Virus genome (UHGV): UHGV-0207576
Reading direction: 5' to 3' (one strand)
DNA from: a virus
Length of the DNA stretch: 19,100 nt
Below, piece after piece: positions 2,184 through 18,301 of the stretch (position 1 is its first letter; each line of letters starts with the position of its first letter). A model generated the notes under the pieces. The model was not told where the DNA came from. It was given only the letters and a program-made list of their open reading frames with translations, and did not search any database. The translations under genes were made by a program, and so were the position numbers.

Positions 2184-2755
2184 TACTGCTCCTCCTTATA
2201 TGTGAAATGGCAATAAGTAAAAGCGGGTTTAAGGTCTTTAAATGTTTCTTCCAGTACAGGGGCACCAAAGGAAAGTAACGGCTCCCCGGCAGCAGATACT
2301 CCGGTTCTGAATCTGTAGGCTGGCGTTCTGCTTCCTGTGACATTAACCTGCCAAATCCATCGGACATCTGTTATATAGAGACGATCACCACATCGGTTTA
2401 TCCCCGCTCTGAATGGATGAAGTTCAGTAATTGTTATGGTGTACCCGAGGCTGGCTGCAAGTTGTTTAAAATAAGGGATAGATAACCCACCAGTTGCAGC
2501 CATCTTTATAAGAATATTTTCTCGGCGTTCCTGCTGTGTGGCACCGTCGCGGGGTATTACTCCATACACTCGTTCCCAGTCAGACAGCGTCATGGATGCG
2601 TAAAATGGTGTGACAGATGCAAGCACTCGTGCAGCTGACGCTTTTACTTCATCCATAATGGCTGCTTCTGCGTTCAGTTCTGCTGAAATATATTTCCCGT
2701 TCGGGTCATAGCTGACCGGTGGTAACATGGCACGAAATAAATCAACCGTATTCAT
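2183..2755 (-). CDS. Tail/baseplate protein, Mu gp48-like (DUF2313/YmfQ-like)
   Basis: 190 aa; sits between the baseplate J-like gene and the tail fibre gene as in Mu and e14; stop overlaps fibre start. Confidence 0.55.
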
Positions 2756-2758
2756 GTA

Positions 2759-3838
2759 TTAACTCTCCCGGGGAAATGGCTGGATATCAATACTCCCCGG
2801 ACGCAGCCACTCCCATGTGGATTCATTGACAACTGCTTTTACATTATCTGACGGCATAATAATTCGCCGGTCACTGACGCCAGAAATTAATGAAATCTGA
2901 GTTTCCAGTTGTGAAATAATTAATTCCTGCCCCGGCTCCAGCCGGTTCATAAAATCCGTGATAACTTCAGTTATCTGTGGTTTTATCTGTTCAACAGTAA
3001 GACCACTGGTTTTTACCCGGACAACGAAATCAACGGCTTTTTTCGTCGGGGCCAGCACCATCGTGTCCTTCGCTGTCACCGGGCGGACTTCCTCAATATG
3101 TGCCAGCACGGCATTAATCAGTTCCTGCGAAGGGAGGTCATTGGCTGACGTAATGGCCACATCAACCGTCCCCAGTCCACGACGCAACGGCTCCACATAC
3201 GCAGACGTAACGCCATCCACTTCCAGCGCCCAGCGTTTGTAATCATATTTATTACCGCCAGCGGGCGGCCTGCGCAGAATATCCAGATAACGCGCCAGCA
3301 GGTCGGCGTCGCTTTCCCTGTCCGTTCCGCCGGTCAGGGATTTAATCGTCACCGTGCTGTTGATGCCTTCAGGTGGGCTGACCAGCGTTGCCGTCTGCGT
3401 CGTGGATGCATTCGTCTGTGCACCCGTGGCAGTGCTTTTTACCGTCACCTCTGCGCTGCCTTCATCACCGACGGTGCAGTCTGCTGCGGTGGCCACGCTG
3501 ACACCTTCACCACGAATTTCCGCACCGGCTGGCAGCGTCTTACCGGGTGTGCCGGTAATCACTGCCGGACCGGATGAGGCCGTTGCTTTTTTACGAAAAA
3601 CATTGCGCGTGCGGCAGTGCAACTCCAGATATTCAGGGTCTGCCGTATCAGGAAACACCTGACGGAGTATCCACCCCTGATGCATATACAGTCCGTCCGC
3701 CACGCCGGATACGGCATTTGCACGAATGCGGTAATCGCTGTCAGCGCCGGTGTCGATGGTTTCGCCCGGCAGGGCGTTAGCGATATCACGTAGCTGGCGT
3801 TCTGTGTTTTCAGCAACGCCCGGAACAGGAAACGGCAT
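2759..3838 (-). CDS. Baseplate J-like protein (Mu gp47 / P2 gpJ family)
   Basis: About 359 aa from ATG at 3836-3838 (GAGGA Shine-Dalgarno 8 nt upstream; the longer ORF to 3862 starts on TTG and overlaps the upstream stop). Size and position match baseplate wedge J. Confidence 0.65.
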   Translation of the reverse strand: MPFPVPGVAENTERQLRDIANALPGETIDTGADSDYRIRANAVSGVADGLYMHQGWILRQVFPDTADPEYLELHCRTRNVFRKKATASSGPAVITGTPGKTLPAGAEIRGEGVSVATAADCTVGDEGSAEVTVKSTATGAQTNASTTQTATLVSPPEGINSTVTIKSLTGGTDRESDADLLARYLDILRRPPAGGNKYDYKRWALEVDGVTSAYVEPLRRGLGTVDVAITSANDLPSQELINAVLAHIEEVRPVTAKDTMVLAPTKKAVDFVVRVKTSGLTVEQIKPQITEVITDFMNRLEPGQELIISQLETQISLISGVSDRRIIMPSDNVKAVVNESTWEWLRPGSIDIQPFPRES

Positions 3839-3848
3839 TACATAATCC

Positions 3849-4187
3849 TCACAGGTGTTCAAACGTCTGCGGTGTGCCCGCGTTATCCGTGACGGTGATT
3901 AACAGCAACAACCAGCCGCGCTGCCCCGGTTTTGTGTCAACGGTAATGGATTTTGCCCGCCCGTCATCGAGCAGGGGCTGAAGTGCCTGGCTGGCATACT
4001 GCGCCGCAAGCTTATGAACACGGGAAACGTCTTTTTCCCGCTTCAGCTCGTGCAGGCGTGACCCCAGCGACGCATCCGCCCAGTAACTGCCAAGCGGCGT
4101 CGCCAGTCGCAGATAAACCGCGTTATGAAGGGTATAAATCCGACGGCGTTCGTAGTCGCCGGTTGCAGGTGAAATCGTCTGGTCCAT
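3849..4187 (-). CDS. Baseplate protein, Mu gp46-like (P2 gpW-like)
   Basis: 112 aa; small protein between the V-like spike and the J-like wedge, the conserved gp45-gp46-gp47 order. Confidence 0.5.
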   Translation of the reverse strand: MDQTISPATGDYERRRIYTLHNAVYLRLATPLGSYWADASLGSRLHELKREKDVSRVHKLAAQYASQALQPLLDDGRAKSITVDTKPGQRGWLLLLITVTDNAGTPQTFEHL

Positions 4188-4240
4188 GCCGCCAGTCTGG
4201 CAGCATGGACAGGTCAGAATCAGGTGAGGGTGTTCAGCAC

Positions 4241-4894
4241 TTAATTAACCGGCGTGTCAGACATGCCGTGTGGGGTTGGATGTTTGTGCGTTCCGATTTT
4301 AACGCCATTAATGGTGACGTCAACGGAGGTAATCACTCCACCCACATGGTTGATATCGCCTTCAAAGGTGGCAGTGTATCCCTTGCCCCCACTGATGGCC
4401 ATGCCACCGTTGCCGGTGATTTTGCCTTCCACCGTCAGCCTGTCACTGGCTGTCAGTAACGGTGTCGTGAATGTGGCGTTCTCCTCTGCCTCAACCTCGT
4501 AGCGTTTGCATTTCACGCGATAAACGTCACATTCGGTTTCAATAACCCGTCCGCGCTTCAGTACGATTTTCGCGCCTTCATCGGTATACAGGGCCACTTC
4601 CCCGGGTTTCAGTTCCGTCAGACGATATGCGCCGTGCTCTGTGGCCACCACGACAGTATGAGAGGTATTGCCGTTCAGCGGAACGGCAATACCCATTGAG
4701 CCGGGCGGCGGGGATGTGGTGAGGCCGTAATGCTGAAAATACTCCGCACCGTCCAGCTGTTCGCCTGCCAGCCCGTTAAGCTGAAGCAGCTGTACTTTGG
4801 TCGAACTGTCCACCGTACCGGTCACCACCCTGAATGCCTGGCGAACGGCGGCCAGTGCCTGCTGTACGCGCTGATTAACTTTGTCCCACATCAT
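4241..4894 (-). CDS. Baseplate assembly protein V / central spike (Mu gp45-like)
   Basis: 217 aa; start overlaps upstream stop (ATGA); C-terminal ...VTINGVKIGTHKHPTPHG resembles gpV-type spike tips; size and position match Mu gp45. Confidence 0.65.
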   Translation of the reverse strand: MMWDKVNQRVQQALAAVRQAFRVVTGTVDSSTKVQLLQLNGLAGEQLDGAEYFQHYGLTTSPPPGSMGIAVPLNGNTSHTVVVATEHGAYRLTELKPGEVALYTDEGAKIVLKRGRVIETECDVYRVKCKRYEVEAEENATFTTPLLTASDRLTVEGKITGNGGMAISGGKGYTATFEGDINHVGGVITSVDVTINGVKIGTHKHPTPHGMSDTPVN

Positions 4895-6102
4895 TTCTCC
4901 CAGACCTTAACAATGGCGACCTCTTTTTTCTTTTTGCCCCTGCGGTGATGGCGTTTCTTCTCGCGCGGGAAGGCATCAGGTATCCACACGCCGTCCTCTT
5001 TAAAGCGGAGCCGGGTTGTCTGCCCGTTTCGGCCTCCGCTGAACTCACGCCCCATCAGGAAAAAGATGGCATCAATGCCGTGGAGTTCGCTGACAATCCG
5101 CACCCGCTGGCCGGGCTGCCACAGAACACCATCTGCCGTGCGATGACCTGCAACCAGCGCGACGATATCCAGCCCCGACAGGCGGGCATCACTCATCATT
5201 TTTTTTGCGCGCCAGTTCACCTGCTCCAGATTGCTGGTGTCGCCCTGGGTGATTATCTGCGGGCGGTAATAATCCACGGTGGGGTCGGTGGCAACGGCTT
5301 TCATGTTATGAATGCCTGTCTGGCCACTGTCCGTATTACCGCTGTCCTGCCCGGACAATGTGCGCACGCTGCCGTCCTCGTTCCAGATATCCAGCGGCAC
5401 CACGGCCACCTGTTTCTTGCTGTCTGCGCGGCGGGCGTGGCTCTGGGCCAGCACAGTAAGTTCGGAGAAACAGCCGTTAATGGACCGGGTATCGTCCAGC
5501 TCCATCACGTTGTTCCCGGTGCCGTTCAGCTTCAGAATCAGCGTATCCACCGGCGTGGTGGTGTAGTCAGGGCCACCCACAACCAGCGTCCCGTCAGGCT
5601 CAAACCACGGCCATAAGCCGCGACCGGCGGCAGCTTTGGCCAGTGCATCCCACGCACGCATCCCCGGCTCAATAACGACTTTGTCATTACGTGACACACC
5701 GGACGCCTGAATACGGATGCGCTGTATCCCCAGCGGTCTGACAATCCTGTCGATGACCTCGTCCAGCGTCAGCTGGTTGGCGCTGAACACTGGCGCGGCA
5801 CAGTCCACCAGGATGGCGGCATCATCACGCCCGGACAGGGTCAGCGTGCAGCTCTGACGGGATACACTGCGGCGCACGCTGTCTATGCGCCCACTGAGCA
5901 CCGTTTCGTCTCCCACCTGCAACCGGATTTGTGCGCCCCGGACGATATCCGCCGGGAACACCTTTTCAGGCAGCCCCAGCTGAAGCTGCCAGCCGTCGGC
6001 AGCTTTCAGGAAATCGCTGTCAATACGATAACTGTTCCAGTCAGAATGCGACCTTCCGGCAATGACCAGGCTGATTTTGTCTTCGTTATTTTGCGTAGGC
6101 AT
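4891..6102 (-). CDS. Tail/baseplate hub protein (Mu gp44 P-like, P2 gpD late-control-D family)
   Basis: 403 aa; position between gp43-like and gp45-like genes; unusual Lys/Arg-rich C-terminal tail (EKKRHHRRGKKKKEVAIVKVWEK). Confidence 0.6.
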   Translation of the reverse strand: MPTQNNEDKISLVIAGRSHSDWNSYRIDSDFLKAADGWQLQLGLPEKVFPADIVRGAQIRLQVGDETVLSGRIDSVRRSVSRQSCTLTLSGRDDAAILVDCAAPVFSANQLTLDEVIDRIVRPLGIQRIRIQASGVSRNDKVVIEPGMRAWDALAKAAAGRGLWPWFEPDGTLVVGGPDYTTTPVDTLILKLNGTGNNVMELDDTRSINGCFSELTVLAQSHARRADSKKQVAVVPLDIWNEDGSVRTLSGQDSGNTDSGQTGIHNMKAVATDPTVDYYRPQIITQGDTSNLEQVNWRAKKMMSDARLSGLDIVALVAGHRTADGVLWQPGQRVRIVSELHGIDAIFFLMGREFSGGRNGQTTRLRFKEDGVWIPDAFPREKKRHHRRGKKKKEVAIVKVWEK

Positions 6103-6937
6103 TAATGACCACCCCGGCGGTTATGTTGTTCGGGTCACGCAGCTGCGGGTTCAGACGTTGCAGTTCTGCCGCACGACTGTAATCACCGTACCACTGCCAC
6201 GCCAGCAACAGCAGACAGCTGTCCGCCTGCACCTGTTTCTGCATCAGCGGTGGGCGGCGTGACAGAACCAGCAGGCCGACATCCTGCACGGATGCCGCCA
6301 CGTTTTTCATGCTCTGAATGATTTCCGGGTACATCAGCCCCAGCGGTGATGCGGTTTCGGTTATCCGTTCGCGTTCGCCTTCATAGCGTTCACGGAACAG
6401 CGTGATGGCAGCCTGTAAGCGGGTGCGCACATCCCCGACCAGTCGCCCGATATCCGCCGGTATAAGCTGTTCTGACTGCGCATCATCAACCAGTATCGCC
6501 ATTGCAACACTGGCCAGTTCAGATGCGGCCTGTGTTGCGTAAACTGCTTTCACATCCTGCACATCGTCTGGCGAGGCATCCGCAGGAAGTACCACCTCCG
6601 GTACTTTATCGCCACTGACCAGGGCAACAGGCAGCGCAACAAATTCATCCATATCAGTGATGACCTTATTCCAGCAGTTCATCACTGTCGCAGAACTGGC
6701 GACGGTCGTCTCTCCTGCCAACCCGGTCCGGGTGGCAGAATCAACACGTTGCAGAACCGGCACCGGTTGCCCGACATCTGATGTGTGGATTTCCAGCACC
6801 TCTGCCAGTCCATTGATAAATTTTCCGGGTTCGCCTGCCAGTGACACGATATTATCGACAGTGGAGACAAAATCACTTTTGAACGACAGCAGGGTATTCA
6901 CCAGTGTGGCACGCACTGTCTGGGCTTTTTTAATCAT
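6086..6937 (-). CDS. Tail protein, Mu gp43 (N, DNA circulation)-like; C-terminal region resembles the LysM-like fold of P2 gpX
   Basis: 283 aa; C terminus ...LLLLAWQWYGDYSRAAELQRLNPQLRDPNNITAGVV resembles a LysM/gpX-like motif; lies immediately after the tape measure. Confidence 0.45.
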   Translation of the reverse strand: MIKKAQTVRATLVNTLLSFKSDFVSTVDNIVSLAGEPGKFINGLAEVLEIHTSDVGQPVPVLQRVDSATRTGLAGETTVASSATVMNCWNKVITDMDEFVALPVALVSGDKVPEVVLPADASPDDVQDVKAVYATQAASELASVAMAILVDDAQSEQLIPADIGRLVGDVRTRLQAAITLFRERYEGERERITETASPLGLMYPEIIQSMKNVAASVQDVGLLVLSRRPPLMQKQVQADSCLLLLAWQWYGDYSRAAELQRLNPQLRDPNNITAGVVINAYAK

Positions 6938-6941
6938 GCTG

Positions 6942-8336
6942 TTAACGGTATTTAAAGGTGCAGTAAGCCAGGATTGCCTTCAGTGCCTGCATATCACCAA
7001 CAAGCTCACCAACACCGAACCCCTCAAGAATTTTCGCCATAGACTCTAGGATTTTGTCCTGCTGGCCTTTGTCTTTTGTTGCTGCCAGACGCTTCTGAAG
7101 CTCCTGATATTGTTTGTTGTTCGCGGTGACTTTATCAGTGAGGCGTGAAAATGCTTCTATCGGATCAATGCCGTTTTCCATAGCTCGGGTCAACGTACCA
7201 GGTAGATCAATACCTTTGCCATCAATCGTGATGCTTTTCGCCCTTGTTGCTGATTCACTACTGAAAAGTTTGGCCAGCAGGTTTACAACGTTATTACCTG
7301 CTTCACTGCTGCTGCCTGCGGCAATCCCTGCGACCTCATTAAATGCCAGTAATTTCTGGAGTCCATCCAGTCCTTTCATTCCGGCGTTACCAGCTAACGC
7401 CATCTGAGGTCCAAGATATTCCGCCATATCCCGTAGCTCAAAATTACCCGCTTTACCTGCTGCGACAGCCATATTAAACATGGCCGGGAGGTCGTCATCT
7501 GTCAGTCCAAATGTTTGTTTAGCTTTGGCCGCCATAGTGACCAGATCGCGTGGAGATGCGCCGGATGCAGTAGCAAATTTCATAATCTGCGGTAAGAGAT
7601 TATTCGCGGTATCCCAGGAAAAAGCGCCGCTGGCCAACATCTCATTCATTGCTTCAGCTGCATCCTCTTTCGTTCCGCCACCATACGTTACCGCCGCGCG
7701 GATACTGTTTTTCAGCTTTTCACGCCCAAACTGCCTGCCTTCCAGACCACCATCACTGAACGCCGTGTTCGCCATCATGCTGAGCTGACGTTCATAACTC
7801 ATTTGATTTCTGACTGGTTGCGTCATAATGGCGGCCCCTGCCATAATTCCGCCGCCTATTGTCACGGCATTCCCGCCAAATGCAGCCGCACGGGCAAAAC
7901 GCCCCCGTTCAGGGATAACAGGCGTTTTCGCCATCTTCATCTGAGCCTGAGTGACGCCATCCAGTTCACGCTTGAGTGCCCGGGCTTTTTCCCGGGTGGC
8001 CTGCATGGCGCGCTCCTGCTCCTGCGCAGATTCAAAACCGGCGCGGGCCAGACGGTTATAGCTGGCAACCGTCTGATAAATTTCACGCCGGATCTCGCGT
8101 TCTGCACGAATACCGAGCGTTTCCCGGGCACGGGCGGCACGCTGTATCTCTTTTGCCGCCTTTTTCGTGCTGTTAACGCTTTCCTGCCCGGTACGCGTCT
8201 GCTCTGCGCCTGCCTTCCGGGTTGCCTTTGTTACACCTTCGGTGGCTTTGATAACCTGTTTTTGTCCCTTTTCCAGAACCTGCGAGGCTTCGTCCTTCGC
8301 AGTCAGGGTCATGCCAACTTTGAAATTACCGGCCAT
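6942..8336 (-). CDS. Tail tape measure protein
   Basis: 464 aa; Ala/Gly-rich, charged coiled-coil N-terminal region, central GGxxxG-type hydrophobic stretch (AAAFGGNAVTIGGGIMAGAAIM), typical tape measure composition; preceded by a chaperone gene with an overlapping alternative frame. Confidence 0.8.
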   Translation of the reverse strand: MAGNFKVGMTLTAKDEASQVLEKGQKQVIKATEGVTKATRKAGAEQTRTGQESVNSTKKAAKEIQRAARARETLGIRAEREIRREIYQTVASYNRLARAGFESAQEQERAMQATREKARALKRELDGVTQAQMKMAKTPVIPERGRFARAAAFGGNAVTIGGGIMAGAAIMTQPVRNQMSYERQLSMMANTAFSDGGLEGRQFGREKLKNSIRAAVTYGGGTKEDAAEAMNEMLASGAFSWDTANNLLPQIMKFATASGASPRDLVTMAAKAKQTFGLTDDDLPAMFNMAVAAGKAGNFELRDMAEYLGPQMALAGNAGMKGLDGLQKLLAFNEVAGIAAGSSSEAGNNVVNLLAKLFSSESATRAKSITIDGKGIDLPGTLTRAMENGIDPIEAFSRLTDKVTANNKQYQELQKRLAATKDKGQQDKILESMAKILEGFGVGELVGDMQALKAILAYCTFKYR

Positions 8337-8498
8337 TTTTCTGTTTACCTTTTCTGCGTTTCTTTCTGAGGGATTTAAATGACTGGCGGGTGGTCTGTGA
8401 GGTGTCCTTTCTTCCTGAGCCGCCGCCGTTCAGCCTGTCAACGGCGGCAAGCCAGCCGTCCAGCTCGGGACGGCTCATGGTCATGATTTGTTCTTCAG

Positions 8499-8789
8499 TT
8501 ATTCCGTAGCGCCCGAGGATAAGGACTGCGAGCCGGAGTCCGGCGAGCCGGGATTCCCGCCGCTCCGCTTTACCTTCAGGACGTTGCGTGATGCCAGCAG
8601 AATATTAAAATCTTCCGGCGTCATGTTGTCGTGCAACAGCTCCGCCGTCAGTTCTTCCTGCGGAATATCCCCCAGACGGACCAGCGTTGCCGCCATTACC
8701 GCACAGCGGTAGTAATAATCCGCCGCGAAGCCGTCCACTGTCTGAAAGCGTTCTTCAGTTTCTTCCAGTGCCTGCCCGTTATCACGCAT
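8499..8789 (-). CDS. Tail assembly chaperone (P2 gpE / Mu gp41-like), probably lacking its original N terminus
   Basis: 96 aa from ATG; the frame stays open 29 codons upstream (TGIATQTGELSDGLVFNGTIHKNFELRLPV) with a gpE-like pattern but no start codon; acidic LTAELLHDNMTPEDFNILL region; lies directly upstream of tape measure. Confidence 0.5.
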   Translation of the reverse strand: MRDNGQALEETEERFQTVDGFAADYYYRCAVMAATLVRLGDIPQEELTAELLHDNMTPEDFNILLASRNVLKVKRSGGNPGSPDSGSQSLSSGATE

Positions 8790-9262
8790 GACCGGCAGAC
8801 GCAGCTCAAAGTTTTTATGAATGGTGCCGTTAAAAACCAGACCATCGGACAGTTCGCCGGTCTGTGTAGCGATACCTGTTCATAGAAACGCACTGCTTTA
8901 ACTAGTCCTTCCGGCACTACCGACGCTGGCGGGGCAGCATAAAGCTCATGCATTCCATCAGATAGCGAGTGACCTACATACTCACTGAACCCATCAACAC
9001 ACATGCATCCATCTTCAACAATGCATGACGCTACTGGCAAAGCCACCTCCCGTGCCTCCAGTTCTTCTGCCCACTCCCGAAGCCCTTCAATCTCACCATT
9101 ACGAGCTATCAGATCGCGACACAGTCTTTCGTTTTCATCCAGCAACGCCTGCACAACCTCCGGCGTAGCCGCAGCATGAAAAGCCTGTAGGTTCTGCCAC
9201 GTCGTATCCCCCTTCGCGGCCTCTGCCACCTCACGCAGTGCCTGATAGTTAATCTCGCTCAC
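8696..9262 (-). pseudogene. ead/Ea22-like protein, N-terminal ~120 aa intact, then runs across a probable deletion/recombination junction (~8880-8900) into out-of-frame chaperone sequence
   Basis: GTG start with AGGAGG RBS; N terminus MSEINYQALREVAEAAKGDTTWQNLQAFHAAATPEVVQALLDENERL matches the Ea22-like N-terminal pattern as recalled; C-terminal ~65 aa is Cys/Trp/Arg-rich and overlaps the chaperone frame. Confidence 0.45.
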
Positions 9263-9518
9263 TGGTTGCCTCCTTTTTCCATGTTTTCAGACTTTCACCA
9301 CAGAACGGGCAAAAACACATGGCAACACCACGACCGACATATTGGCCGGAGTGAATTTGAGCAATGTCTAAGCCTGGCTCGCCGGTGTTTATATTCACGC
9401 GTTCCGGGATAAATATGCCTTTACTCTTAAAGGCTGGATTTCCATATTCGAGTGCTTTTGCCAGTACCGCACACGGTTCTATCTGATTGCCATTAATTCG
9501 ACACTTTAATTCACTCAC
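9249..9518 (-). CDS. Hypothetical small protein with Cys motifs (possible zinc-binding)
   Basis: Likely GTG start at 9516-9518 (GGGAGG RBS, GTGA overlap with upstream stop); contains C..C and CFCPFC motifs. Confidence 0.4.
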   Translation of the reverse strand: MSELKCRINGNQIEPCAVLAKALEYGNPAFKSKGIFIPERVNINTGEPGLDIAQIHSGQYVGRGVAMCFCPFCGESLKTWKKEATSERD

Positions 9519-9679
9519 TTCAACACCTCCCGACGACGTTCCTGAAGTTCCAGCATTGCAGCCCGGAAATCCTGCCACCATTCCTCATCGGCAACGGGGG
9601 AGTTCCGCTCCAGCACCTTGTCCGCATCGGCAATCAGTCTGGTCAGACTCTTATCGCTTATTCTGGTTTGCTGACTCAC
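9515..9679 (-). CDS. Hypothetical small protein
   Basis: Probable GTG start at 9677-9679 preceded by AGGAGA RBS (longest ORF reaches 9718 on TTG); charged, helical-looking 53-67 aa. Confidence 0.35.
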   Translation of the reverse strand: MSQQTRISDKSLTRLIADADKVLERNSPVADEEWWQDFRAAMLELQERRREVLK

Positions 9680-9965
9680 TGGTTGTCTCCTGTTCATTTT
9701 TTTCATTCCGGTACACAAGAATTACGATATCTCCCCGGGTAATTACGCGTGCGGGGTCGCCCTGTTGCATATGGTCAATATCAAAAGCGTCATTAAACGC
9801 ATTTAGCGCCTTCGCGCGCTTGTCTTTACAACGATGTTTTTCACGCTGCTTAAAGAGCGAAGAAATCAACCACCTGAATGACATAAAAGTGATATAGCCA
9901 TAACCGATAAGCGCCAGACCTGTATTCATGGCTACATCTATCGTTATCGTTTTATCAATGACCAT
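9651..9965 (-). CDS. Hypothetical small membrane protein (one predicted TM helix)
   Basis: 104 aa; strong AGGAGG RBS 7 nt upstream of ATG; hydrophobic stretch NTGLALIGYGYITFMSFRWLISSLF followed by basic segment; start overlaps upstream stop. Confidence 0.5.
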   Translation of the reverse strand: MVIDKTITIDVAMNTGLALIGYGYITFMSFRWLISSLFKQREKHRCKDKRAKALNAFNDAFDIDHMQQGDPARVITRGDIVILVYRNEKNEQETTSESANQNKR

Positions 9966-10185
9966 TGCCAGCCTCCTGTTTTGCCACTTTAAACGCCCGC
10001 AACATCGGGACCGTTTTACCGCTGATGACAGTGTTCATAACAATACCGATTCCACTGTGATGTAACGCTCCCGGTGCAACAAACAGCGCAGCATCTACAA
10101 CTCTGAAGTAACGGTGGAACTCCCAGAACCAACAAGAAATAGTGATAGTTGCGGTGACCCCATGGTCATAAAATTCAATTTTCAT
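9955..10185 (-). CDS. Hypothetical small protein
   Basis: 76 aa; ATGA start/stop overlap with upstream gene (translational coupling). Confidence 0.4.
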   Translation of the reverse strand: MKIEFYDHGVTATITISCWFWEFHRYFRVVDAALFVAPGALHHSGIGIVMNTVISGKTVPMLRAFKVAKQEAGNGH

Positions 10186-10409
10186 TTGCAGTTAAACCTT
10201 CTCTTATGACGTTCTACGGCAGCCTTCATATTGTTGTGCACGGTTCTTTTAATAATCCGACGTCCCACACTGTCATAGAACCGCCACCGGGAAGCCCCCG
10301 GATATCCGGGGAACTCAACCACCGCGCTACCGTCATTCATCCTGTATTCGTGGCGTTCTCCGGGCGGCTGGTATATTGCTTCGGTAACACTAAGAAGTTT
10401 AAAAGCCAT
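10182..10409 (-). CDS. Hypothetical small protein
   Basis: 75 aa; strong GGAGGG RBS ~7 nt upstream of ATG; 2 nt after upstream stop. Confidence 0.45.
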   Translation of the reverse strand: MAFKLLSVTEAIYQPPGERHEYRMNDGSAVVEFPGYPGASRWRFYDSVGRRIIKRTVHNNMKAAVERHKRRFNCK

Positions 10410-10411
10410 CG

Positions 10412-11122
10412 TTACACCCTCCCCAGTGCCAGCGGTCTGTTGCTCTGACCATTAACCCCCTGATGCAGCCTGGCGTTCTTCCCGGCGATAAAACCGGCAG
10501 TAGCGGCAAACTCTGCACCCCGACACGCTTTAGCTGTGCGCATATCCCCGTCGCGCAGTCCCTTAGTGCTGTGCAGGTTCTTTCTGTAAAGCTCAAGGCG
10601 GCTTTTTTCTTCCGGGGAGACGTCATACACCGCAATGACATCACGGGCACCAAAGACCCAGCCTTCGCAGAACTGGTCGCCACGGGCTACCCGCGTGGAC
10701 GGACCACAACGTTTGCAGTGTTTATCCTGATATTTCTTGCGCTCTGCCATCATCTGACGGGAAAGCACATCAAACGCGTAAGCCGCGATTTCCGGGCGGC
10801 TGTCAGGACCATAAAAACGCACGTAACGTTTGAGTGAACCAGAAGCCCGGTATTCGCCGGAGATGTAACACTCGACACCGAAGGCTTTACAGACCAGGTC
10901 ACACAGGATGTGCATATAACGCGGCGGCGTACTGGCGTCACTCGGCGCACCCGCGCTGGCAGCTTCCTGAATGTCGAACAATTCCGCGTCGTTTTCGCTG
11001 ATACCATGCTGGCGCATATAAGCCTGGGCTTTTGCAATAGCGTTAGCGGCTTCTTCCGGGCTTGATGTTCCTCTGGCAAGGCGTAACAGTTTTTTGATTT
11101 TGGCAATGTATTTATCTTTCAT
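10412..11122 (-). CDS. Phage accessory protein with DUF2786-like N-terminal helical motif
   Basis: 236 aa; N terminus KIKKLLRLARGTSSPEEAANAIAKAQAYMRQHGI matches the DUF2786-type pattern common in prophage early regions (from memory, not searched). Confidence 0.5.
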   Translation of the reverse strand: MKDKYIAKIKKLLRLARGTSSPEEAANAIAKAQAYMRQHGISENDAELFDIQEAASAGAPSDASTPPRYMHILCDLVCKAFGVECYISGEYRASGSLKRYVRFYGPDSRPEIAAYAFDVLSRQMMAERKKYQDKHCKRCGPSTRVARGDQFCEGWVFGARDVIAVYDVSPEEKSRLELYRKNLHSTKGLRDGDMRTAKACRGAEFAATAGFIAGKNARLHQGVNGQSNRPLALGRV

Positions 11123-11210
11123 GGTTGTAACTCATTGTTTTTGATCAACTTATAACCACAAAACACTTGTCATAATCGCTGCCCCAACATACCCAATCAG
11201 GAGTTAAAAA

Positions 11211-11429
11211 ATGATTGATGATGAAATTGCGGCAGCAATTACTGCTAACAAAGCTGCGTGGAGCTTTCTGGTTAAACAGCTTTCAGAAAATGGCTGTCTG
11301 AACCTCAGCGCCCTGGATTCTGAATTACGCAACTTCCAGCACGGCCTTCAGGAACGTGGGGAGTTCGTTCTGGCTGCGGCGCTGGATGAACATCTGCTGT
11401 CGATTGAGAACTGGTCGCAAGACGATTAA
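11211..11429 (+). CDS. Hypothetical small acidic protein, transcribed opposite to all flanking phage genes
   Basis: 72 aa; AGGAG RBS 7 nt upstream of ATG; followed by two hairpin terminators; net acidic. Confidence 0.5.
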   Translation: MIDDEIAAAITANKAAWSFLVKQLSENGCLNLSALDSELRNFQHGLQERGEFVLAAALDEHLLSIENWSQDD

Positions 11430-11451
11430 AACAAACGATTGTCAGATTAAT

Positions 11452-11471
11452 TTCGCGGGCGAATTTTTTTT
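11452..11471 (+). terminator. Weak intrinsic terminator after the plus-strand small gene
   Basis: Short GC hairpin ttcgcgggcgaa followed by a run of 8 T. Confidence 0.35.
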
Positions 11472-11507
11472 GCTTAGCAATATTCATAAATAAACTTCCT
11501 CAGATTC

Positions 11508-11545
11508 AGGCGTAAGCCAGCCCCTGCGGGTTTACGCCTGTTTTA
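11508..11545 (+). terminator. Strong hairpin terminator at the boundary between early-gene block and accessory block
   Basis: aggcgtaagccagcccctgcgggtttacgcct forms a ~12-bp stem with one mismatch, followed by gtttt. Confidence 0.5.
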
Positions 11546-11569
11546 AATAACAATTAAAAACAAATTAAA

Positions 11570-11761
11570 TTAATGCGGTGCTTTCAGTGTTTCGACTTTA
11601 ACGAAATAAGGCTCGACATTAATTTCAACCACACAACCACATTTAAAATCTCTGGCAGGTGCAACAGTTTTTACCACCCGACCACCACGCACTGCCCGAT
11701 GTGCAATGTGCATGAAGCGAGTCCCTGGCGGATATAGCTGATTAAAGCGTTTCGCGTTCAT
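11570..11761 (-). CDS. Hypothetical small protein (last gene of early operon)
   Basis: 63 aa ORF; overlaps upstream gene end, real start may be internal Met at ~11713. Confidence 0.35.
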   Translation of the reverse strand: MNAKRFNQLYPPGTRFMHIAHRAVRGGRVVKTVAPARDFKCGCVVEINVEPYFVKVETLKAPH

Positions 11762-11975
11762 GAGGCGGCTTCCATCTTTTCAGGTGAGCATTGGCACAGA
11801 ACTCTGCCCGGTGTTCCGCCCAGATGCGGCGCAGGGTACTACACGGGCTTTGTGCTGCCTTACGCCACAGTTTTTCAGCTTCGGCATAATCGCCGCGTTG
11901 TTCTGCTCTGGACGCGCCCAGCGAATACGCTGCGCAACGGTTCCCGGCCCTGTACTCTTTGATATCCTGATGCAT
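11742..11975 (-). CDS. Small regulator-like protein (ANR-family-like pattern)
   Basis: About 77 aa from ATG at 11973-11975, directly after upstream stop at 11977-11979; pattern ...AAYSLGASRAEQRGDYAEAEKLWRKAAQ...W...C recalls ANR-type small regulators. Confidence 0.4.
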   Translation of the reverse strand: MHQDIKEYRAGNRCAAYSLGASRAEQRGDYAEAEKLWRKAAQSPCSTLRRIWAEHRAEFCANAHLKRWKPPHERETL

Positions 11976-11976
11976 G

Positions 11977-12621
11977 TTAAACCCCTGCAATATCAAGCGG
12001 GATTGCGCGGTATTCAGCAGAATCACCGACGCGCTCATACACGCGGATATAGCTTTTGCTGCCAATTACCTGGACGGCTTCACCAATCAGTTTCATGGCG
12101 TTATCCCAGCGTTCCTCCGTAATATCGAGACGACGCAGAGCCAGAACGCGCCCGGTGTTAATGTTGCCTTCCTTGTCCGTGCTGAATGCTTCACTGATGA
12201 TGGCTTTAATTTCAGGGCGCGCTCCTTCCGTCCAGTCAGCCAGACAGTCATCAATCAGTGCCTTCGCGGTCTGAATGCGTTCATCAAGCGCGATACGGTC
12301 CTGCATGGCGCGCTGAATCTTGTAACGCCCGTCAAAGCTGTAAAGTGTGATATTCCCTTTTTTACCGCCTTTCACAGCGCCGTATTTCTCCGCCGACAGG
12401 TCAATAAATGCCTGAATATCACCAAACGCACGCAGTTTCAGTTCACGCAGTGAGGCAGAGGCAGCAATCACCATCTCCACAAGCTCACCGACCAGCTGCT
12501 CACGGTCGCGGTCAATATCTTTGATAAGACTTTCAGGCGTCATCACACCACGGGCATCAACCCAGTAGCCTTCCTGCACTTTATTTTTTGTATATTGCTT
12601 AACTTTATTTTCAGTCGTCAT
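11977..12621 (-). CDS. Mu-like early-region protein (DUF3164-like)
   Basis: 214 aa; position downstream of the B-like gene in the semi-essential early region; family assignment from memory of the protein pattern, not searched. Confidence 0.45.
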   Translation of the reverse strand: MTTENKVKQYTKNKVQEGYWVDARGVMTPESLIKDIDRDREQLVGELVEMVIAASASLRELKLRAFGDIQAFIDLSAEKYGAVKGGKKGNITLYSFDGRYKIQRAMQDRIALDERIQTAKALIDDCLADWTEGARPEIKAIISEAFSTDKEGNINTGRVLALRRLDITEERWDNAMKLIGEAVQVIGSKSYIRVYERVGDSAEYRAIPLDIAGV

Positions 12622-12650
12622 AATTAAATTACCTCAGTGATATTTACAGA

Positions 12651-12866
12651 TTAATGTGTGTTATGTGCGCGAGGCGCAACATTTTCAGAAAAAAGATTCA
12701 CGCCGTTATAGTCATTTCTGAGCGTTTCCTTGATAGCATCATGTAATCTTGTTGCCACCTGAAACTCCTTTTCGGAAGCTCCGTCCTTCGAATAACTCCC
12801 CGTGGTCTGGGTTAAAACACAGCCTTTTTCATCGGTATAGATAATTACTTCTAACTTAACCGCCAT
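12651..12866 (-). CDS. Hypothetical early-region protein
   Basis: 71 aa ORF in the early operon. Confidence 0.4.
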   Translation of the reverse strand: MAVKLEVIIYTDEKGCVLTQTTGSYSKDGASEKEFQVATRLHDAIKETLRNDYNGVNLFSENVAPRAHNTH

Positions 12867-12878
12867 TCTGATTTCCTC

Positions 12879-13118
12879 TTATTGCCATACGACGGTGCAG
12901 CCGTCGATACAGGACGTTTTCACCACGCGGCGCAGGCCGCTGAATGTCTGGATGATTTCCGTTACCGGCCATACAGGGCCGCCCACGGGCGGGCAGGCAT
13001 AAACCACAGGTAAACGGTGATGTTGCCCAGTTACGCGACCGCCGGTGGTGTGGATGGCCACACGGGCACGGGAACGGACGGCGTTAATGGTCTGCTTGTC
13101 CATCATCTTGTTCTCCAT
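12879..13118 (-). CDS. Hypothetical early-region protein
   Basis: 79 aa ORF immediately downstream of the B-like gene. Confidence 0.4.
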   Translation of the reverse strand: MENKMMDKQTINAVRSRARVAIHTTGGRVTGQHHRLPVVYACPPVGGPVWPVTEIIQTFSGLRRVVKTSCIDGCTVVWQ

Positions 13119-14011
13119 CAGTGAATTAACATTTCTGCGAATTTATCAATGGCCTGCACACTGACCGGTGCATCGCTGATATCACAAATCCGGTACACAC
13201 CGCGAGCCAGTTTGAACAGGCGGCGGGCATTACCCAGTGAGCGTGCGTAGAGCGCCTCGCTGATTTCCGGTTCTGCTGCTTCCGGCATCAGCCCGGTAGC
13301 TATCTGGTTAAAATCTTCCTGCGACAGCGTATCGCCCAGGTTAAGCGCCAGCGCCACACGGCTGTATAACTGGGCGAACTCACCGCGACGTCCCTTGAGG
13401 TTAATCAGAAGGCGTGGCATACCCGCCAGGACAATCCCGATACCCGCTTTGTCATGCAGACGGCGCAGAACCTCCAGTGCGCGATAGGGGAGCAGTTCAG
13501 CCTCGTCCACCATCAGCAGGCGACCGGAATCACGCAGTTCTCGCACACATGCATCAATCAGTTCGTGGATATTGCCGCGAACTTTTACCCCCAGCTGGCG
13601 GCACAGCTCCTCAAGCAGTGTTCTGGCTGTATAGCCCGGGTCGGCTTCAATCAGGACCGCATCCCGGTTTCTGGCGGCGTATTCACGCAGAATCATTGTT
13701 TTGCCAAGACCTGCCGCGCCATACAGTACGCAGATTTCACATTCCAGGTGAGCATAGGCCAACACCTCCAGTCCTTTGGCAGCCATACCGGTGGCAACAA
13801 ATTTCGCTTTAATACGGCGGCTGTTTTCCTTTTCCCGCTCACGGGTCACAAAGGCAGAAATGCGTTCTTCAATATCAGCCATATCGCCCTGATATTTACC
13901 CTGTAAATACTGGTTGATAACGGCGCTGCTACGACCAATAGCACGGGCGACGTGGGTTTGCGTATAGCCGCGACGGGCCATTACGTCATTTAATTGCGTA
14001 ATTAAACTCAT
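13118..14011 (-). CDS. MuB-like transposition target-DNA activator (AAA+ ATPase with N-terminal HTH)
   Basis: 297 aa; N-terminal HTH (YTQTHVARAIGRSSAVINQYLQGK), Walker A GAAGLGKT, Walker B LLMVDEAE; lies directly after the transposase gene as in Mu. Confidence 0.85.
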   Translation of the reverse strand: MSLITQLNDVMARRGYTQTHVARAIGRSSAVINQYLQGKYQGDMADIEERISAFVTREREKENSRRIKAKFVATGMAAKGLEVLAYAHLECEICVLYGAAGLGKTMILREYAARNRDAVLIEADPGYTARTLLEELCRQLGVKVRGNIHELIDACVRELRDSGRLLMVDEAELLPYRALEVLRRLHDKAGIGIVLAGMPRLLINLKGRRGEFAQLYSRVALALNLGDTLSQEDFNQIATGLMPEAAEPEISEALYARSLGNARRLFKLARGVYRICDISDAPVSVQAIDKFAEMLIH

Positions 14012-14029
14012 AATTAAATACCTTTTAAA

Positions 14030-16072
14030 TTAACGGTTGTTTGTGCCGTTTTTCTTTAAATTGCGTTCGCGTTCAGATGCGAATAAATAAAGTTCTTCTT
14101 TTTCCTTTTTCTCCAGGCGTTCCAGTCCATATCCCAGATTAAAGTCAGGCTTCTGCGTAATGGCCGGGGTAAGCTCGCGTTTAGCCTCTTCGATTTTCTG
14201 CGTGGCCCGTGCAATGCGGCCCTTGACGCGTTTCTCCAGTTTTTGTTCGATAACTGGTTTAGCGAAGGCATCAACCTTGTTACCGTTCCAGATGGCATCG
14301 CAGATATAAGAGCCATCAGCCCGCCGGACAATGACGCTGTTTGCATCATGAATATCGTAACTGACCCTGACTTCATTCCCGTGCTCTGCGGCCAGATCAT
14401 ATGAGTAATAAATATTGTTGAATAACTGAATTTCCCCGCGAAATGTTTTGCGCGTCACTTCCGGCCTGAACATTTCATGCAGTTCTTCCGGCGACAGGAA
14501 ATCAATTTCAACATTCTGCTCTTTTATCAGTTTCCGGCGATACGCTGCCGGGCTGTAATGCTCGCCATCCTCTTTGCGAGGAAGGCTGCTGTGTGGCCGG
14601 TTGTTATAGCGTCTGACCTCCAGCTCTATGGCTGCCATCAGTTGCTCAAAGGTAGGGATTTCATCCCTCGCCTTAACCTGCCGTTTTGTCAGCTCTTTCC
14701 CTTTGTGGGTGGCCTTAATGGCTGACTGCATAATCCGTTGCTGCATCATTACGGTTTCCTTGTCTGCATCCCTTGCGCAGTACGTTTGGAAACTCAGGGC
14801 CACGTCTTTGGGTATTTCCTTGTTAACCCTTTCAATCACCCCGCGCCCCTGCGGGTTACCTGGTATCCCCGTGTGATGTTCCACACCCAGACGGGGCAGA
14901 ATCCCGGTAATATCGGCATCAAGCACCAGGTTTTTTTCGCCGCCCCCGTTATCGGAGTAATAAATCAGCGGTATCCCGTGCTGTGCCATGCCGTAACGTA
15001 ACGCATCAGCAACGGCTATCACGTTCTCCGACAGGGACAGTGACCAGCCCACAATAAAGCGTTGTCCTGCATCCATAACCAGCGTCACTTCTGGCCGGAA
15101 AATATTGCCGGTCAGGGGGTTAAACGCGGTCATTTTCATACAGTGACCATCCCCGACCCATACCGCATTAACCGGTAATGATGTCCACTCGCGCCGCACA
15201 AAGGGATTGAGCGAACGCCAGGCTGAACCTGTGGAGCGGAAACGCTCTTTAACAATCACCGGGACGCTGCTTAACACCCGTCTTACTGCGTGAACTGAAG
15301 GCAGTGCCGCCAGCATTCCCGCATCGTTCGCGTGTTTTTCATGCCACCAGGCTGAAAACTCGCGATACGCATATTCAACGGTCGGGCGCTTCCATGAGCG
15401 ATAGAACATAAAGAAATCGCTCAACCACCAGACCTGCTCCCACGGTGTTCCCTTATGATGACCGGGAGCCAGTAACGCCAGTAACTGATTGGCATCACCG
15501 CGCGCCATCACCCAGCTGGAGTACCAACTATCCAGGCTGCCTGTGCTGACACCGGTTCGCTTTCCCTGACGTGCATTTGCAGTATTAGCTGCTTCGATAA
15601 TGCGGTCAGGTAACGCCCCCATGCGCACACCATCAACGATGTGCTTTAACGCGGCCTTCCTTGTCATTCCGGCGTATTCACGCAGTTTATGCACTTCAGT
15701 AGCCAGCAATATCCGCGCATCAGCGATGGCCTTTTGCTTGTCAGTCAGTGCCTGGACTTCGCGTAATGCCAGTTCCGGGCATTTGACCATCACCTCCAGT
15801 TCATCGCGAACGGCGACGTTTTTAACTGCCTTCTGCTCAACCACGGCGGGCAGTTGCGTATCTTCCAGGACCTGATGGGTCAGGCGCTTACGTAAAACTT
15901 TCTGCGCTTCAGCGGGCAGGCAGTCGATGTGATACTCGAATGCTTTGGTGCCTTCACGCTTGCGCTTCCATTCCGGGTGCGTCTCTGTGATCCGATTGAG
16001 CGTCCAGCGCACCCCCTGAACTGTACCGGGCAAACCAGGAAGACCGGCCAGCTCATTGGCTGAATAAAACAT
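14030..16072 (-). CDS. MuA-like DDE transposase
   Basis: 680 aa; N terminus LAGLPGLPGTVQGVRW...TKAFEYHIDCLPAEAQ parallels the MuA end-binding winged-helix domain (ANLPGLPKTSAGV...KAIEYNANSLPVEAK); central DDE region with VWVGDGH; TAATG overlap with Ner-like gene. Confidence 0.9.
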   Translation of the reverse strand: MFYSANELAGLPGLPGTVQGVRWTLNRITETHPEWKRKREGTKAFEYHIDCLPAEAQKVLRKRLTHQVLEDTQLPAVVEQKAVKNVAVRDELEVMVKCPELALREVQALTDKQKAIADARILLATEVHKLREYAGMTRKAALKHIVDGVRMGALPDRIIEAANTANARQGKRTGVSTGSLDSWYSSWVMARGDANQLLALLAPGHHKGTPWEQVWWLSDFFMFYRSWKRPTVEYAYREFSAWWHEKHANDAGMLAALPSVHAVRRVLSSVPVIVKERFRSTGSAWRSLNPFVRREWTSLPVNAVWVGDGHCMKMTAFNPLTGNIFRPEVTLVMDAGQRFIVGWSLSLSENVIAVADALRYGMAQHGIPLIYYSDNGGGEKNLVLDADITGILPRLGVEHHTGIPGNPQGRGVIERVNKEIPKDVALSFQTYCARDADKETVMMQQRIMQSAIKATHKGKELTKRQVKARDEIPTFEQLMAAIELEVRRYNNRPHSSLPRKEDGEHYSPAAYRRKLIKEQNVEIDFLSPEELHEMFRPEVTRKTFRGEIQLFNNIYYSYDLAAEHGNEVRVSYDIHDANSVIVRRADGSYICDAIWNGNKVDAFAKPVIEQKLEKRVKGRIARATQKIEEAKRELTPAITQKPDFNLGYGLERLEKKEKEELYLFASERERNLKKNGTNNR

Positions 16073-16308
16073 TACGCCGCCTTACTGGCATACCGGCTTG
16101 GCCAGATCTCCGCAGGTTCCACACCAATAGCATCGGCTATGATGCGTTCATATTTAGGGCATGAGCGATACAGTGCATTTTTTAAAGAGTCTTTTTTTAG
16201 ACCAGCGCGTTCAGAAAGTTCACGCAATGTAAAACCTTTGGTGTGCACAGCGGCAACGATGTACTCGCGGTGCCAGTCTTTGTTCATTACTTCATTTCTA
16301 ACCATCAT
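16072..16308 (-). CDS. Ner-like DNA-binding regulator (Ner/Nlp family)
   Basis: About 78 aa from ATGATG at 16303-16308 with AAGG RBS; WHR...LSERAGLKKDSLKNALYRSCPKYERIIADAIGVEPAEIWPSRY closely parallels Mu Ner. Confidence 0.8.
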   Translation of the reverse strand: MMVRNEVMNKDWHREYIVAAVHTKGFTLRELSERAGLKKDSLKNALYRSCPKYERIIADAIGVEPAEIWPSRYASKAA

Positions 16309-16490
16309 TAGGTTACCCTTAAAAGTTATCCGTGCGGATAACACCGCCGTGTTATCCCTTCGGATATAAGTATTGATCCATATATAGCTCATGTAAAGCA
16401 AAAATAGCCCTTTCTTTGTATTTTCTTTTTGCTTTTGGTCTTTATATGGTTTTTGTAATTAAAATCAATAAGTTATAGAGGAAAGAAAAA
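16309..16490. promoter_or_regulatory. Divergent early control region (Pe/Pc-like) with candidate operators
   Basis: Two palindromes, GTTATCC-N4-GGATAAC at 16325-16342 and GTTATCC-N4-GGATA at 16351-16366, centres 26 bp apart; CTTT-rich repeats 16411-16436; TTTACA and TATA-like hexamers on both strands. Confidence 0.5.
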
Positions 16491-17138
16491 ATGACTAGAA
16501 ATGATGATGCTTTTTCTTTTGTCGACCGGGGAAAAGAAAGTTTCAGAGAGCGTTTAGTAAAGCTGATAGGTAACCGTAGTGTCAGAACTGCTGCGAGTGA
16601 TTGGGGAATCCCCCCTTCAACCTTAAACAACTACATTCATAAAGGAACAGAGCCTTCTTTTAAAATAGCTTGCCTTATCTCAGATAAAGAACAAGTGAGC
16701 TTAAATTGGCTCGCTTACGGTGAGGAACCCATCGCCAAAGAAAGTTCTCTATCAAATCAAACAGCGCAGCCTTCTCCCGATATTACAAACGAGCTAGTTA
16801 ACGAGTTATTGAAAAGAGCGTCCACAGAAGATAAGGAACAGTTGATAAGTGCAATATGCGATATGGGCATTAAAGGAATCTTGGAACGCCTACAGCAACC
16901 CACCAGGCAAACTAAGCAAGCCGATAGCGAACTTGAGGAGCAAAGAAAGGCCATTCAAAGCCTGAACATCAGGCAATCGCTTAAAGACGCTGTTTGCATG
17001 GCATTAGCTGGCGATGAGGAAAATGACAAAGAGATTTTGCGCCGCGCCAAAGCCATTTTCTGTGCTGGAACACCAGGTGATCGCGTTCCCGTCACACCGG
17101 AGCAAGAAACTAAGCCTGTAAACAAGAAATCAGCATAA
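16491..17138 (+). CDS. Prophage repressor (c-like) with CI-type HTH domain
   Basis: 215 aa; N-terminal ...SDWGIPPSTLNNYIHKGTEPSFKIACLISDKEQVSLNWLAYGE matches the 186/P2 CI-repressor HTH pattern; divergent from ner-A-B and pointing to the prophage end, as Mu c does. Confidence 0.75.
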   Translation: MTRNDDAFSFVDRGKESFRERLVKLIGNRSVRTAASDWGIPPSTLNNYIHKGTEPSFKIACLISDKEQVSLNWLAYGEEPIAKESSLSNQTAQPSPDITNELVNELLKRASTEDKEQLISAICDMGIKGILERLQQPTRQTKQADSELEEQRKAIQSLNIRQSLKDAVCMALAGDEENDKEILRRAKAIFCAGTPGDRVPVTPEQETKPVNKKSA

Positions 17139-17298
17139 GCGCCTCGTTTTGGCGGGGCGTGTGCTGTTAGCTAATCAGCAATAACCACAACAAAACCGAA
17201 CACAACAGATGAGAACAAATTGAGGAAAACGGGTAAGGATAAAACTCTTTTTAAAAGCATTTAAAACCCGTTAAGTTTGTAGCAGAACCAGATCAAAA

Positions 17299-17450
17299 GC
17301 GCCCAGAAAAAAGCGCAAAAAAAAGCGTTTTTGGTCATTTCTCACAAATCCGCCCAGAATCACGCTAAATCACCACACCCCGCGCCACACAAGGCTTGCC
17401 GGTTCTACCAGGCTGCACTAACTCCGCCCAGAATTGATCACTACCCCACA
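17299..17450 (-). repeat. Prophage left end (attL-like) with three direct transposase-binding-type repeats
   Basis: Plus-strand cores (g/c)cgcccagaa at 17299-17308, 17350-17359 and 17424-17433 (TTCTGGGCG in element orientation); spacing resembles Mu L3, L2, L1; sequence ends ...cca-ca at 17448-17450. Confidence 0.55.
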
Positions 17451-18025
17451 ATTCCCGGAAGATTTAGTGGATTAAAAAGAAGATTGATATTAAGCATTGA
17501 TATTATCGAAGGAAACTTTAGGAGACTCTCATTTTTTTGAATCGCAGCAAAAATGCTCCCGACAGGATGTATATAATTTTGTTCATAGTATATAGTCCTT
17601 AAATAGTGAATAACCAACCTGTTTTTTATACTGATCAAATTGGTCATTTTTTCTGGGCGAAATACAGAAGTGACATCCATTCCAATAAAATCTTTATTTA
17701 TACCTCTTATCCGAATTTCACTACCATAAAGATTATTAATTATTACTCTATATTTAACATTGTCCTGCAGATATGTATCAAAACTAAGTGCTGGCGCTCC
17801 TGGCTTTGAGGCATCATAGTTAATGTTAGACATATAGGCAATCATATAATTAAAGTTTGATTCTGCTATTTCATCGCAGTCACATTGACCCGTTGATATA
17901 AAGAAAGTGAGTGCTGTCATAGTAGACTGCAGCCTTTCTTTAAAAGAGTCGAAAGCCAGGCTTTTAATATTTAAATCACCATAATTACTCTGTATTAAGT
18001 TTGTAGAAAACATCTCCCGCCTCAT
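17441..18025 (-). pseudogene. AT-rich host ORF apparently interrupted at its 3' end by the prophage insertion (possibly ydjO-like, unverified)
   Basis: 194-codon ORF begins 277 bp from cedA and reads straight into the predicted prophage terminus, stopping 3 codons inside it; markedly AT-rich compared with the prophage. Confidence 0.45.
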
Positions 18026-18290: not shown

Positions 18291-18301
18291 GTATGTAATC
18301 C

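Follow-up and report, generated by a model that had tools for sequence, protein, structure and literature searches.

The 19,100-nucleotide DNA stretch of the virus genome UHGV-0207576, referred to here as the window, very probably carries a cryptic Mu-like transposable prophage, which lies in the ydjO gene of Escherichia coli and descends from a complete prophage of about 35.7 kb of the E2348/69 type by way of two internal deletions, named D1 and D2. When 5,426 complete E. coli genomes were searched, the window split into two halves that matched the same kind of prophage: positions 8873-17451 matched the Mu-like prophage of E2348/69 (97.7% identity), and positions 5-8874 matched the tail end of the prophage of CFS3292 (97.9%). 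Mapping by blastn onto the intact E2348/69 prophage (locus L002) placed window 8873-17451 on L002 20001-28578 (97.7%), window 6963-8874 on L002 1474-3385 (99.4%), and window 6862-6966 on L002 1-105. According to the gene order of the relatives E2348/69 and CFS3292, every missing gene lies between the break points. The features at the two junctions are the following.

8873-8874: D1 junction, 16,617 bp lost (L002 3386-20002), TA microhomology, from blastn and sequence comparison
8696-9262, minus strand: scar open reading frame of 188 amino acids, the first ~130 Ead/Ea22-like, then running out of frame into the tail-chaperone gene
8326-8789, minus strand: tail-assembly-chaperone remnant and an intact open reading frame of 52 amino acids, 99-100% identity to E2348/69
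6942-8336, minus strand: truncated tape measure, 458 of 757 residues plus six out-of-frame codons
6963-6966: D2 junction, 1,372 bp lost (L002 106-1477), GTAA microhomology
6086-6937, minus strand: C-terminal remnant of the hub or 'DNA circularization' protein (Mu gp43/N-like), 283 of 449 amino acids

Both deletions would have been produced by illegitimate recombination at the level of microhomology. For D1, the parental sequences GCGATA/ATCG and CTTTA/CCTG have only TA in common, and recombination at this overlap would have fused the Ead/Ea22-like early gene, at codon ~130, to codon ~3 of a 127-amino-acid tail-chaperone gene in a different frame. The scar open reading frame matches Pfam Ead_Ea22 at residues 2-96, and its tblastn match to E2348/69 stops at residue ~135. 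What is left of the chaperone is 96 amino acids from an internal ATG (phrog_508, profile positions 50-146 of 155), as the start codon and the ribosome-binding site were deleted. D1 takes out GemA, Mor, two holins, the endolysin, terminase, portal, capsid, head-completion, sheath, and tube genes. D2, with its GTAA overlap, would then have truncated the tape measure and the hub protein, at the cost of the C-terminal 40% of the former and the N-terminal third of the latter. The tape measure, which has 757 amino acids in the relatives, matches phrog_794 at profile positions 2-448 of 763 and E2348/69 by tblastn over residues 1-458, and the hub remnant lacks the first ~166 residues, matches phrog_184 at positions 169-411 of 411, and is 96.5% identical to the C-terminal part of the E2348/69 protein.

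An earlier note on this DNA, made from the letters alone, had placed the transposition gene B and the tape measure only about 4.8 kb apart, and the coordinates bear this out. From the stop of B (13118) to the start of the tape measure (8336), the gap measures 4,781 bp versus 21.4 kb in the intact E2348/69 prophage, a distance shorter by 16.6 kb because of exactly one deletion, D1. Scans with Pfam, PHROGs, and NCBIfam gave no terminase, portal, capsid, sheath, or tube match for any open reading frame in the gap; they returned early-region families, phage families of unknown function for several further small open reading frames, or no family, in agreement with the note's statement that no head, sheath, or tube gene lies there. 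Its description of the interval as a non-Mu accessory block, however, does not stand, since the interval is collinear with intact prophages of the lineage and starts with a Kil homologue. It had also called the element deleted or mosaic, of which only the first part is borne out by the end points mapped with blastn: two clean deletions relative to a collinear relative make the element deleted, not mosaic. The truncation of the tape measure, the truncation of the hub by a second deletion, and the loss of Mor had been overlooked. The early region comprises the following features.

9249-13106, minus strand: early ('semi-essential') region, collinear with E2348/69, 94-100% amino acid identity except p71
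12879-13106, minus strand: Kil-like gene (phrog_2679), the first gene after B, as in Mu
12651-12866, minus strand: p71, 71 amino acids, following the Kil-like gene
11977-12621, minus strand: DUF3164 gene
11742-11975, minus strand: gene of the ANR (AraC negative regulator) family (NCBIfam NF033650, 1.3e-15)
11570-11761, minus strand: p63
11211-11429, plus strand: p72, opposite-strand open reading frame of 72 amino acids, 100% conserved and annotated in E2348/69
10412-11122, minus strand: DUF2786/DUF7168 gene
10182-10409, minus strand: p75
9955-10185, minus strand: p76
9651-9965, minus strand: DUF4752 gene
9515-9679, minus strand: p54
9249-9518, minus strand: p89

Judged by this collinearity, the 4.8-kb block is the normal early region of the lineage and not foreign. 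Its sole gene not conserved with E2348/69 is p71 (44% over part of its length), which is a small exchanged cassette. For p72, no match was found in Pfam, PHROGs, or NCBIfam, and a scan of 6000-13200 for promoters and terminators gave nothing exceeding the shuffled expectation. The ANR-family gene is intact in the remnant and is a possible host-regulating 'moron'.

Nearly all long open reading frames in the window are on the minus strand, according to the list of open reading frames. On its right side, the window leaves the prophage and enters the host chromosome as follows.

17391-17450: left (repressor-side) prophage end, ending ...CCGCCCAGAATTGATCACTACCCCACA-3'
17451-19100: E. coli host flank, matching the chromosomal ydjO-cedA-katE region at 99.9% identity
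17451-18013, minus strand: disrupted ydjO, N-terminal ~187 codons
18302-18565, minus strand: cedA
18748-19100, plus strand: katE, start only

The prophage splits ydjO, which has 267 codons, behind codon ~187. The left terminus, ...CCCCACA, is conserved and abuts different host DNA in E2348/69, STEC308, L020, and L024. In relatives the right end begins with TGTAACTTCGCG..., and for the element described here it lies beyond the window edge. In four relatives it is found only ~280 bp past the position equivalent to window base 1; therefore, there would be no space for head genes on that side. The predicted junction of right end and ydjO gave 0 matches in JGI metagenome contigs, a scan outside which the known carriers, being in ENA and Logan assemblies, fall. 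With the conserved TG...CA termini taken as ends, the target-site duplication in three relatives reads 4 bp: TATG (L001 8415/30649), AGTG (L002 28577 with L008), and CTTT (both ends of L020).

Carriers of the deleted element were found by the exact sequence of the scar protein and of the truncated tape measure. Both scars are present in 11-12 contigs from at least six independent assemblies (ENA ERZ27289098, ERZ27287483, ERZ27274202, and ERZ19661572; Logan ERR11507440 and ERR2619760), and across both junctions, over the common prophage sequence, these contigs match the window at 99.97-100%. For the ERZ27289098 contig, overall identity is 99.86% on account of a different fibre cassette. All three loci that extend as far as the flank have ydjO there; they come from two samples (L004 and L027, on one 84.8-kb contig, and L005). 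The D1 junction is absent from the 5,426 complete E. coli genomes, in which half-matches only were found. The element is real and is presumably inherited vertically within a single lineage of E. coli. A 1-nucleotide deletion near 3853 is present in the window and in the L004 contig, and there is a single nucleotide polymorphism at 6243; three other contigs differ from the window at both positions, which shows diversification after the deletions.

The side of the prophage that serves immunity and transposition was kept.

16491-17138, plus strand: repressor, 215 amino acids (phrog_3037), 100% amino acid identity to E2348/69
16072-16308, minus strand: Ner-like regulator, 78 amino acids (Pfam HTH_35), 100% identity to E2348/69
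14030-16072, minus strand: Mu-type DDE transposase A, 680 amino acids, intact, full length, 98.4% identity to E2348/69
13118-14011, minus strand: MuB-like AAA+ ATPase, 297 amino acids, intact (Pfam AAA_22, 8.8e-23, and TniB), 99.3% identity to E2348/69

The repressor is transcribed divergently from the early operon, the transposase carries the Pfam domains HTH_Tnp_Mu_1 (1.5e-10), rve, and Mu-transpos_C (1.5e-16), and the gene for the MuB-like ATPase lies directly downstream of it. A DDE transposase, B, a divergent repressor with Ner, a Kil-like gene after B, and many insertion sites were all found, as in Mu-like phages. The earlier statement that repressor, Ner, transposase, B, and the left end are intact is in line with the 98-100% amino acid identity to the intact relative and with the conserved terminus.

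Other explanations for this arrangement have been considered. That the joins at 8873 and 6963 are chimeric contigs is almost inconceivable; the window apparently derives from short-read metagenome-type assemblies and contigs do break at the fibre inverted repeats, but the same joins occur in the at least six independent assemblies, which come from different samples (MEGAHIT-style k119_/k141_ names, and Logan), and overlaps of 2 bp and 4 bp fall far below the length that could lead an assembler astray or cause a de Bruijn collapse. An extremely improbable reading is also that of a mosaic, with a foreign, non-Mu block linking the transposition module of Mu and a distal tail module. Most open reading frames in 8336-13118 are without a named function, and the fibre cassette is P2-like, as might be expected of a mosaic; against this, the order of the block follows the early region of intact prophages gene by gene, with 97.7% DNA identity and a Kil homologue in first place, and the join amounts to a simple deletion within one genome. 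Finally, the element might be a natural 'mini-Mu', a reduced, satellite-like element that transposes after derepression and is packaged or complemented by a co-resident Mu-like helper. A and B are full length and 98-99% identical to those of the intact relative, the left end is preserved, and the family clearly transposes, given its insertions at unrelated sites. Such a satellite is nevertheless very unlikely: ydjO is the only place where the deleted element was found, a single copy is favoured by the 84.8-kb contig, which crosses the left end into host DNA, the joins are scars that lie out of frame, no right end was seen, and the complete genomes searched lack the element. The single insertion site and the long contig also argue against recent mobility, as far as this can be read from assembled sequence.

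Some observations weigh against a cryptic prophage that arose by decay. As the right end is outside the window, complete ends and a target-site duplication are only presumed for the element. Moreover, all retained genes are intact, including A, B, and those of the baseplate, and this could reflect recency or some selection for function. Expression, immunity, and mobility of the remnant are, furthermore, judged from sequence only.

A prophage disabled by D1 and D2 agrees with what the remnant contains and lacks. Apart from the exchanged p71 and fibre cassettes, the other proteins are full length with 94-100% identity to E2348/69. From the virion gene set (terminase, portal, capsid, sheath, tube, full tape measure, and lysis genes), none was found in the window with Pfam and PHROGs, and the absent genes all map inside D1 or D2 of the intact relative. 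The remnant would thus be unable to lyse its host, to package DNA, to form heads, or to build a tail shaft, and the earlier proposal that it cannot make virions fits the loss of the whole head and sheath/tube block. A tailocin was considered and rejected, as sheath, tube, and lysis genes are absent and tape measure and hub are truncated. In Mu-type phages, Mor is the activator required for late transcription, and the late genes of the remnant would be left without it. This weakens the proposal that the remnant supplies fibres or baseplates on its own; a complete hub and tape measure for a helper it should not be able to supply at all. The intact baseplate and fibre genes would serve at most as a recombination reservoir for related phages. 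The repressor probably still confers immunity against incoming relatives, and derepression of the remnant would plausibly be lethal, given intact Kil, A, and B. Its persistence would be by vertical inheritance, since Mu-type prophages have no clean excision route.

The gene order in the complete prophages of E2348/69 and CFS3292 begins with repressor, ner, A, B, and the same early genes as in the window. These are followed by Ead/Ea22, GemA (gp16 family), Mor, two holins, a GH108 endolysin, DUF1804, a DNA methyltransferase, TerL, and a DUF935 portal, then by Mu F-like and G-like morphogenesis proteins, a protease, the major head protein gpT, gp36/gp37-like proteins, sheath, and tube, and finally by two chaperone open reading frames, the 757-amino-acid tape measure, the 449-amino-acid hub, baseplate, fibres, and the right end. 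Among isolated phages, the best transposase matches (Pseudomonas VW-6B, Yersinia Tongde, and Mu-like phages of Klebsiella and Mannheimia) do not exceed 50% identity. When the entire window was compared with a phage collection at the DNA level, nothing but the P2-like fibre cassette gave a match; therefore, no isolated phage is closely related, and the lineage is known only as prophages. Family insertion sites are eutC, mhpT, a site between yjiK and yjiL, ydjO, and a site next to narZYWV.

Further deletion derivatives of the family were found via homologues of the hub protein. These include A(1-121)::gp43(148-449) in a ~6.5-kb remnant (L020, GCA_000703525.1), A(1-127)::gp43(275-449) (L024, Logan ERR12740292), gp36::gp43(~162) (L025 and L026, the former GCA_021646825.1), tube(1-92)::gp43(100-449) (L031, GCA_044149095.1), and the element of STEC306-308 between yjiK and yjiL, which has a 15-kb deletion from tape measure to holin and a 602-bp deletion inside gp43. 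Some derivatives, namely the A::gp43 and tube::gp43 types, are in-frame fusions. A homologue search with the full tape measure gave two further candidate truncations (L032 and L033), which were rejected as they are collinear with the intact phage, and in a 25-kb search of E. coli genomes for more derivatives, matches to the fibre cassette drowned out the rest. Members of this family usually decay by internal deletion, and because internal deletions always keep both flanks, survival of the immunity and fibre sides needs no special selection.

Eight deletion junctions of the family were mapped to the base, a small sample that was gathered through one gene.

8873-8874 of the window: D1, TA
6963-6966 of the window: D2, GTAA
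L001 16337-16338: STEC308, 602-bp deletion, TA
L020 ~2126: A::gp43, GCGCGG[A/T]TA
L024 ~10380: TA
L025 5570-5574: TA
L031 ~2504: TA
L020 3106-3107: second deletion, GAA

TA lies within the crossover microhomology at seven of the eight junctions, including both in the window. When random junctions having 2 or more nucleotides of microhomology were simulated on the intact prophage, only 3% contained TA. At that rate the chance of 7/7 would be ~1e-11 to 1e-10, and a binomial estimate for 7/8 gives about 1e-10. The break points recur as well. Four independent ones in the hub gene fall within ~50 nucleotides at codons 148-162 (L003 25903-25953), namely at codon ~148 (L020), ~156 (D2), ~156 (STEC308), and ~162 (L025), and the hot-spot sequence reads GATTTTTTTGATGCCGTTACTGCACCTTTAAATACCGTTAAC. 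Those of D2 and STEC308 are within ~3 nucleotides of each other, yet opposite sides were deleted. Contig L030 starts exactly at GTTACTGCACC, which is hub codon 155. The transposase gene was cut after the same nucleotide in two A::gp43 lineages, directly behind GCGCGGATA at codon 121 (window ~15710).

Tentatively, it has been considered whether TA-specific breakage and rejoining with preferred sites, and not random illegitimate recombination, makes the deletions of this family, a possibility that is at present rather doubtful. The agent may be a nuclease or recombinase with a 2-nucleotide stagger or a host activity against the prophage, acting at TA steps, or the pattern may come from a bias of a host joining pathway. 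Several candidate causes of the TA rule and the hot spot were rejected. There are no Chi sites inside the prophage, the gix-like inversion site of the family has AA as its central dinucleotide and no half-site similarity is seen, Mu-type end cleavage cuts at CA, and only a minority of sites fit YTAR, the target of IS5, as is also true of GWTMW, the consensus of integron secondary sites. The literature was searched for deletion junctions specific to TA in E. coli, with no relevant result. If upheld in a larger survey, TA-only junctions with recurrent break points would indicate that prophage decay in E. coli is shaped by a specific mechanism that has so far not been named.

The closest known system is the prophage in eutC of E2348/69 O127:H6 (NC_011601.1, about 2,715,934-2,751,660). 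The two agree fully in repressor and Ner and at 98-99% in A, B, and the baseplate proteins, and they have gene order and left-end sequence in common; the E2348/69 prophage differs by retaining the 16.6 kb of genes from GemA to tube and a full-length tape measure and hub, and has another fibre cassette and insertion site. Phage Mu shares the divergent repressor, Ner, DDE transposase A, ATPase B, a Kil-like gene, a G-segment-like fibre cassette, the P/Q/V/W-type baseplate of a contractile tail, TG...CA ends (of which the left one is in the window), many insertion sites, and, in the intact relatives, Mor-controlled late genes, whereas its target duplication is 5 bp instead of 4 bp in the relatives, and Mu is not among the top transposase matches. 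Like mini-Mu elements, the remnant keeps transposition genes without morphogenesis genes, but mini-Mu elements were built in the laboratory and have two verified ends. The other derivatives of the family likewise have internal deletions that keep both flanks, microhomology junctions that nearly always contain TA, and break points in the hub, and differ in insertion sites and end points, some being in frame and some far more reduced. Cryptic prophages of E. coli such as e14, Rac, and CP4-57 in K-12 and the defective pool in O157 Sakai (PMC2669165) are disabled by deletions, stay in the chromosome, and can still donate genes or recombine with other phages. They are mostly lambdoid or P4-like and leave by integrase-mediated excision, in contrast to the element in the window, which is transposable and has no clean excision.

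The element is an ordinary case of decay and adds a new deletion derivative to a Mu-like prophage lineage that was already known. It provides a base-pair record of how a non-excising transposable prophage was disarmed by internal deletion while its immunity, transposition, and baseplate-fibre genes survived. It also corrects the annotation, in that the genes for tape measure and hub turn out to be pseudogenes, the early region accounts for the 'accessory block', and Mor is gone. The pattern of TA junctions and hot spots may matter more than the element itself and is the only part deserving a follow-up survey.

Downstream of the hub remnant, the baseplate genes and the fibre cassette fill the rest of the window.

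4891-6102, minus strand: gp44/P-like (Pfam)
4241-4894, minus strand: gp45/V-like (Pfam)
3849-4187, minus strand: gp46/W-like (Pfam), C-terminus altered by the 1-nucleotide deletion near 3853
2759-3838, minus strand: gp47/J-like (Pfam)
2183-2755, minus strand: gp48/I-like (Pfam)
1-2183, both strands: tail-fibre cassette with the layout of an invertible segment
1353-2183, minus strand: tail fibre
751-1356, minus strand: fibre assembly protein
336-779, plus strand: alternative assembly protein, facing the minus-strand fibre genes
1-336, plus strand: alternative fibre C-terminus

The proteins gp44 to gp48 are 98.5-99.5% identical to E2348/69 and all full length, with only the last residues of gp46 changed (112 versus 116 amino acids). 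The fibre cassette was exchanged; it has 56% amino acid identity to that of E2348/69 (p71 and the fibre proteins together, 38-58%) and ~89% DNA identity to fibre cassettes of P2-like phages. An invertible fibre system had also been proposed, and its layout is present, bounded by a perfect 16/16 inverted repeat, CTTGGTTTGGGAGAAG, at 1-16 and 1877-1892, but no invertase gene was found within the window. Intact relatives have only a Gin/Pin-type invertase stub of 31 codons, MFIGYVRASTNDQDTDLQRNALNCAGYELIF, between the fibre cassette and the right end (L008 8461-8553; L003 ~18839-18931, just past the equivalent of window base 1), so inversion, if any, would need an invertase in trans. An identical alternative assembly protein adjoins invertase genes in other prophages and sits in many P2-like and other prophages; as a route to the right end it was uninformative, being too widespread among prophages. 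The window begins exactly at one copy of the inverted repeat, and several independent contigs stop at one or the other copy, which fits heterogeneity by inversion or a repeat common to P2-like prophages.

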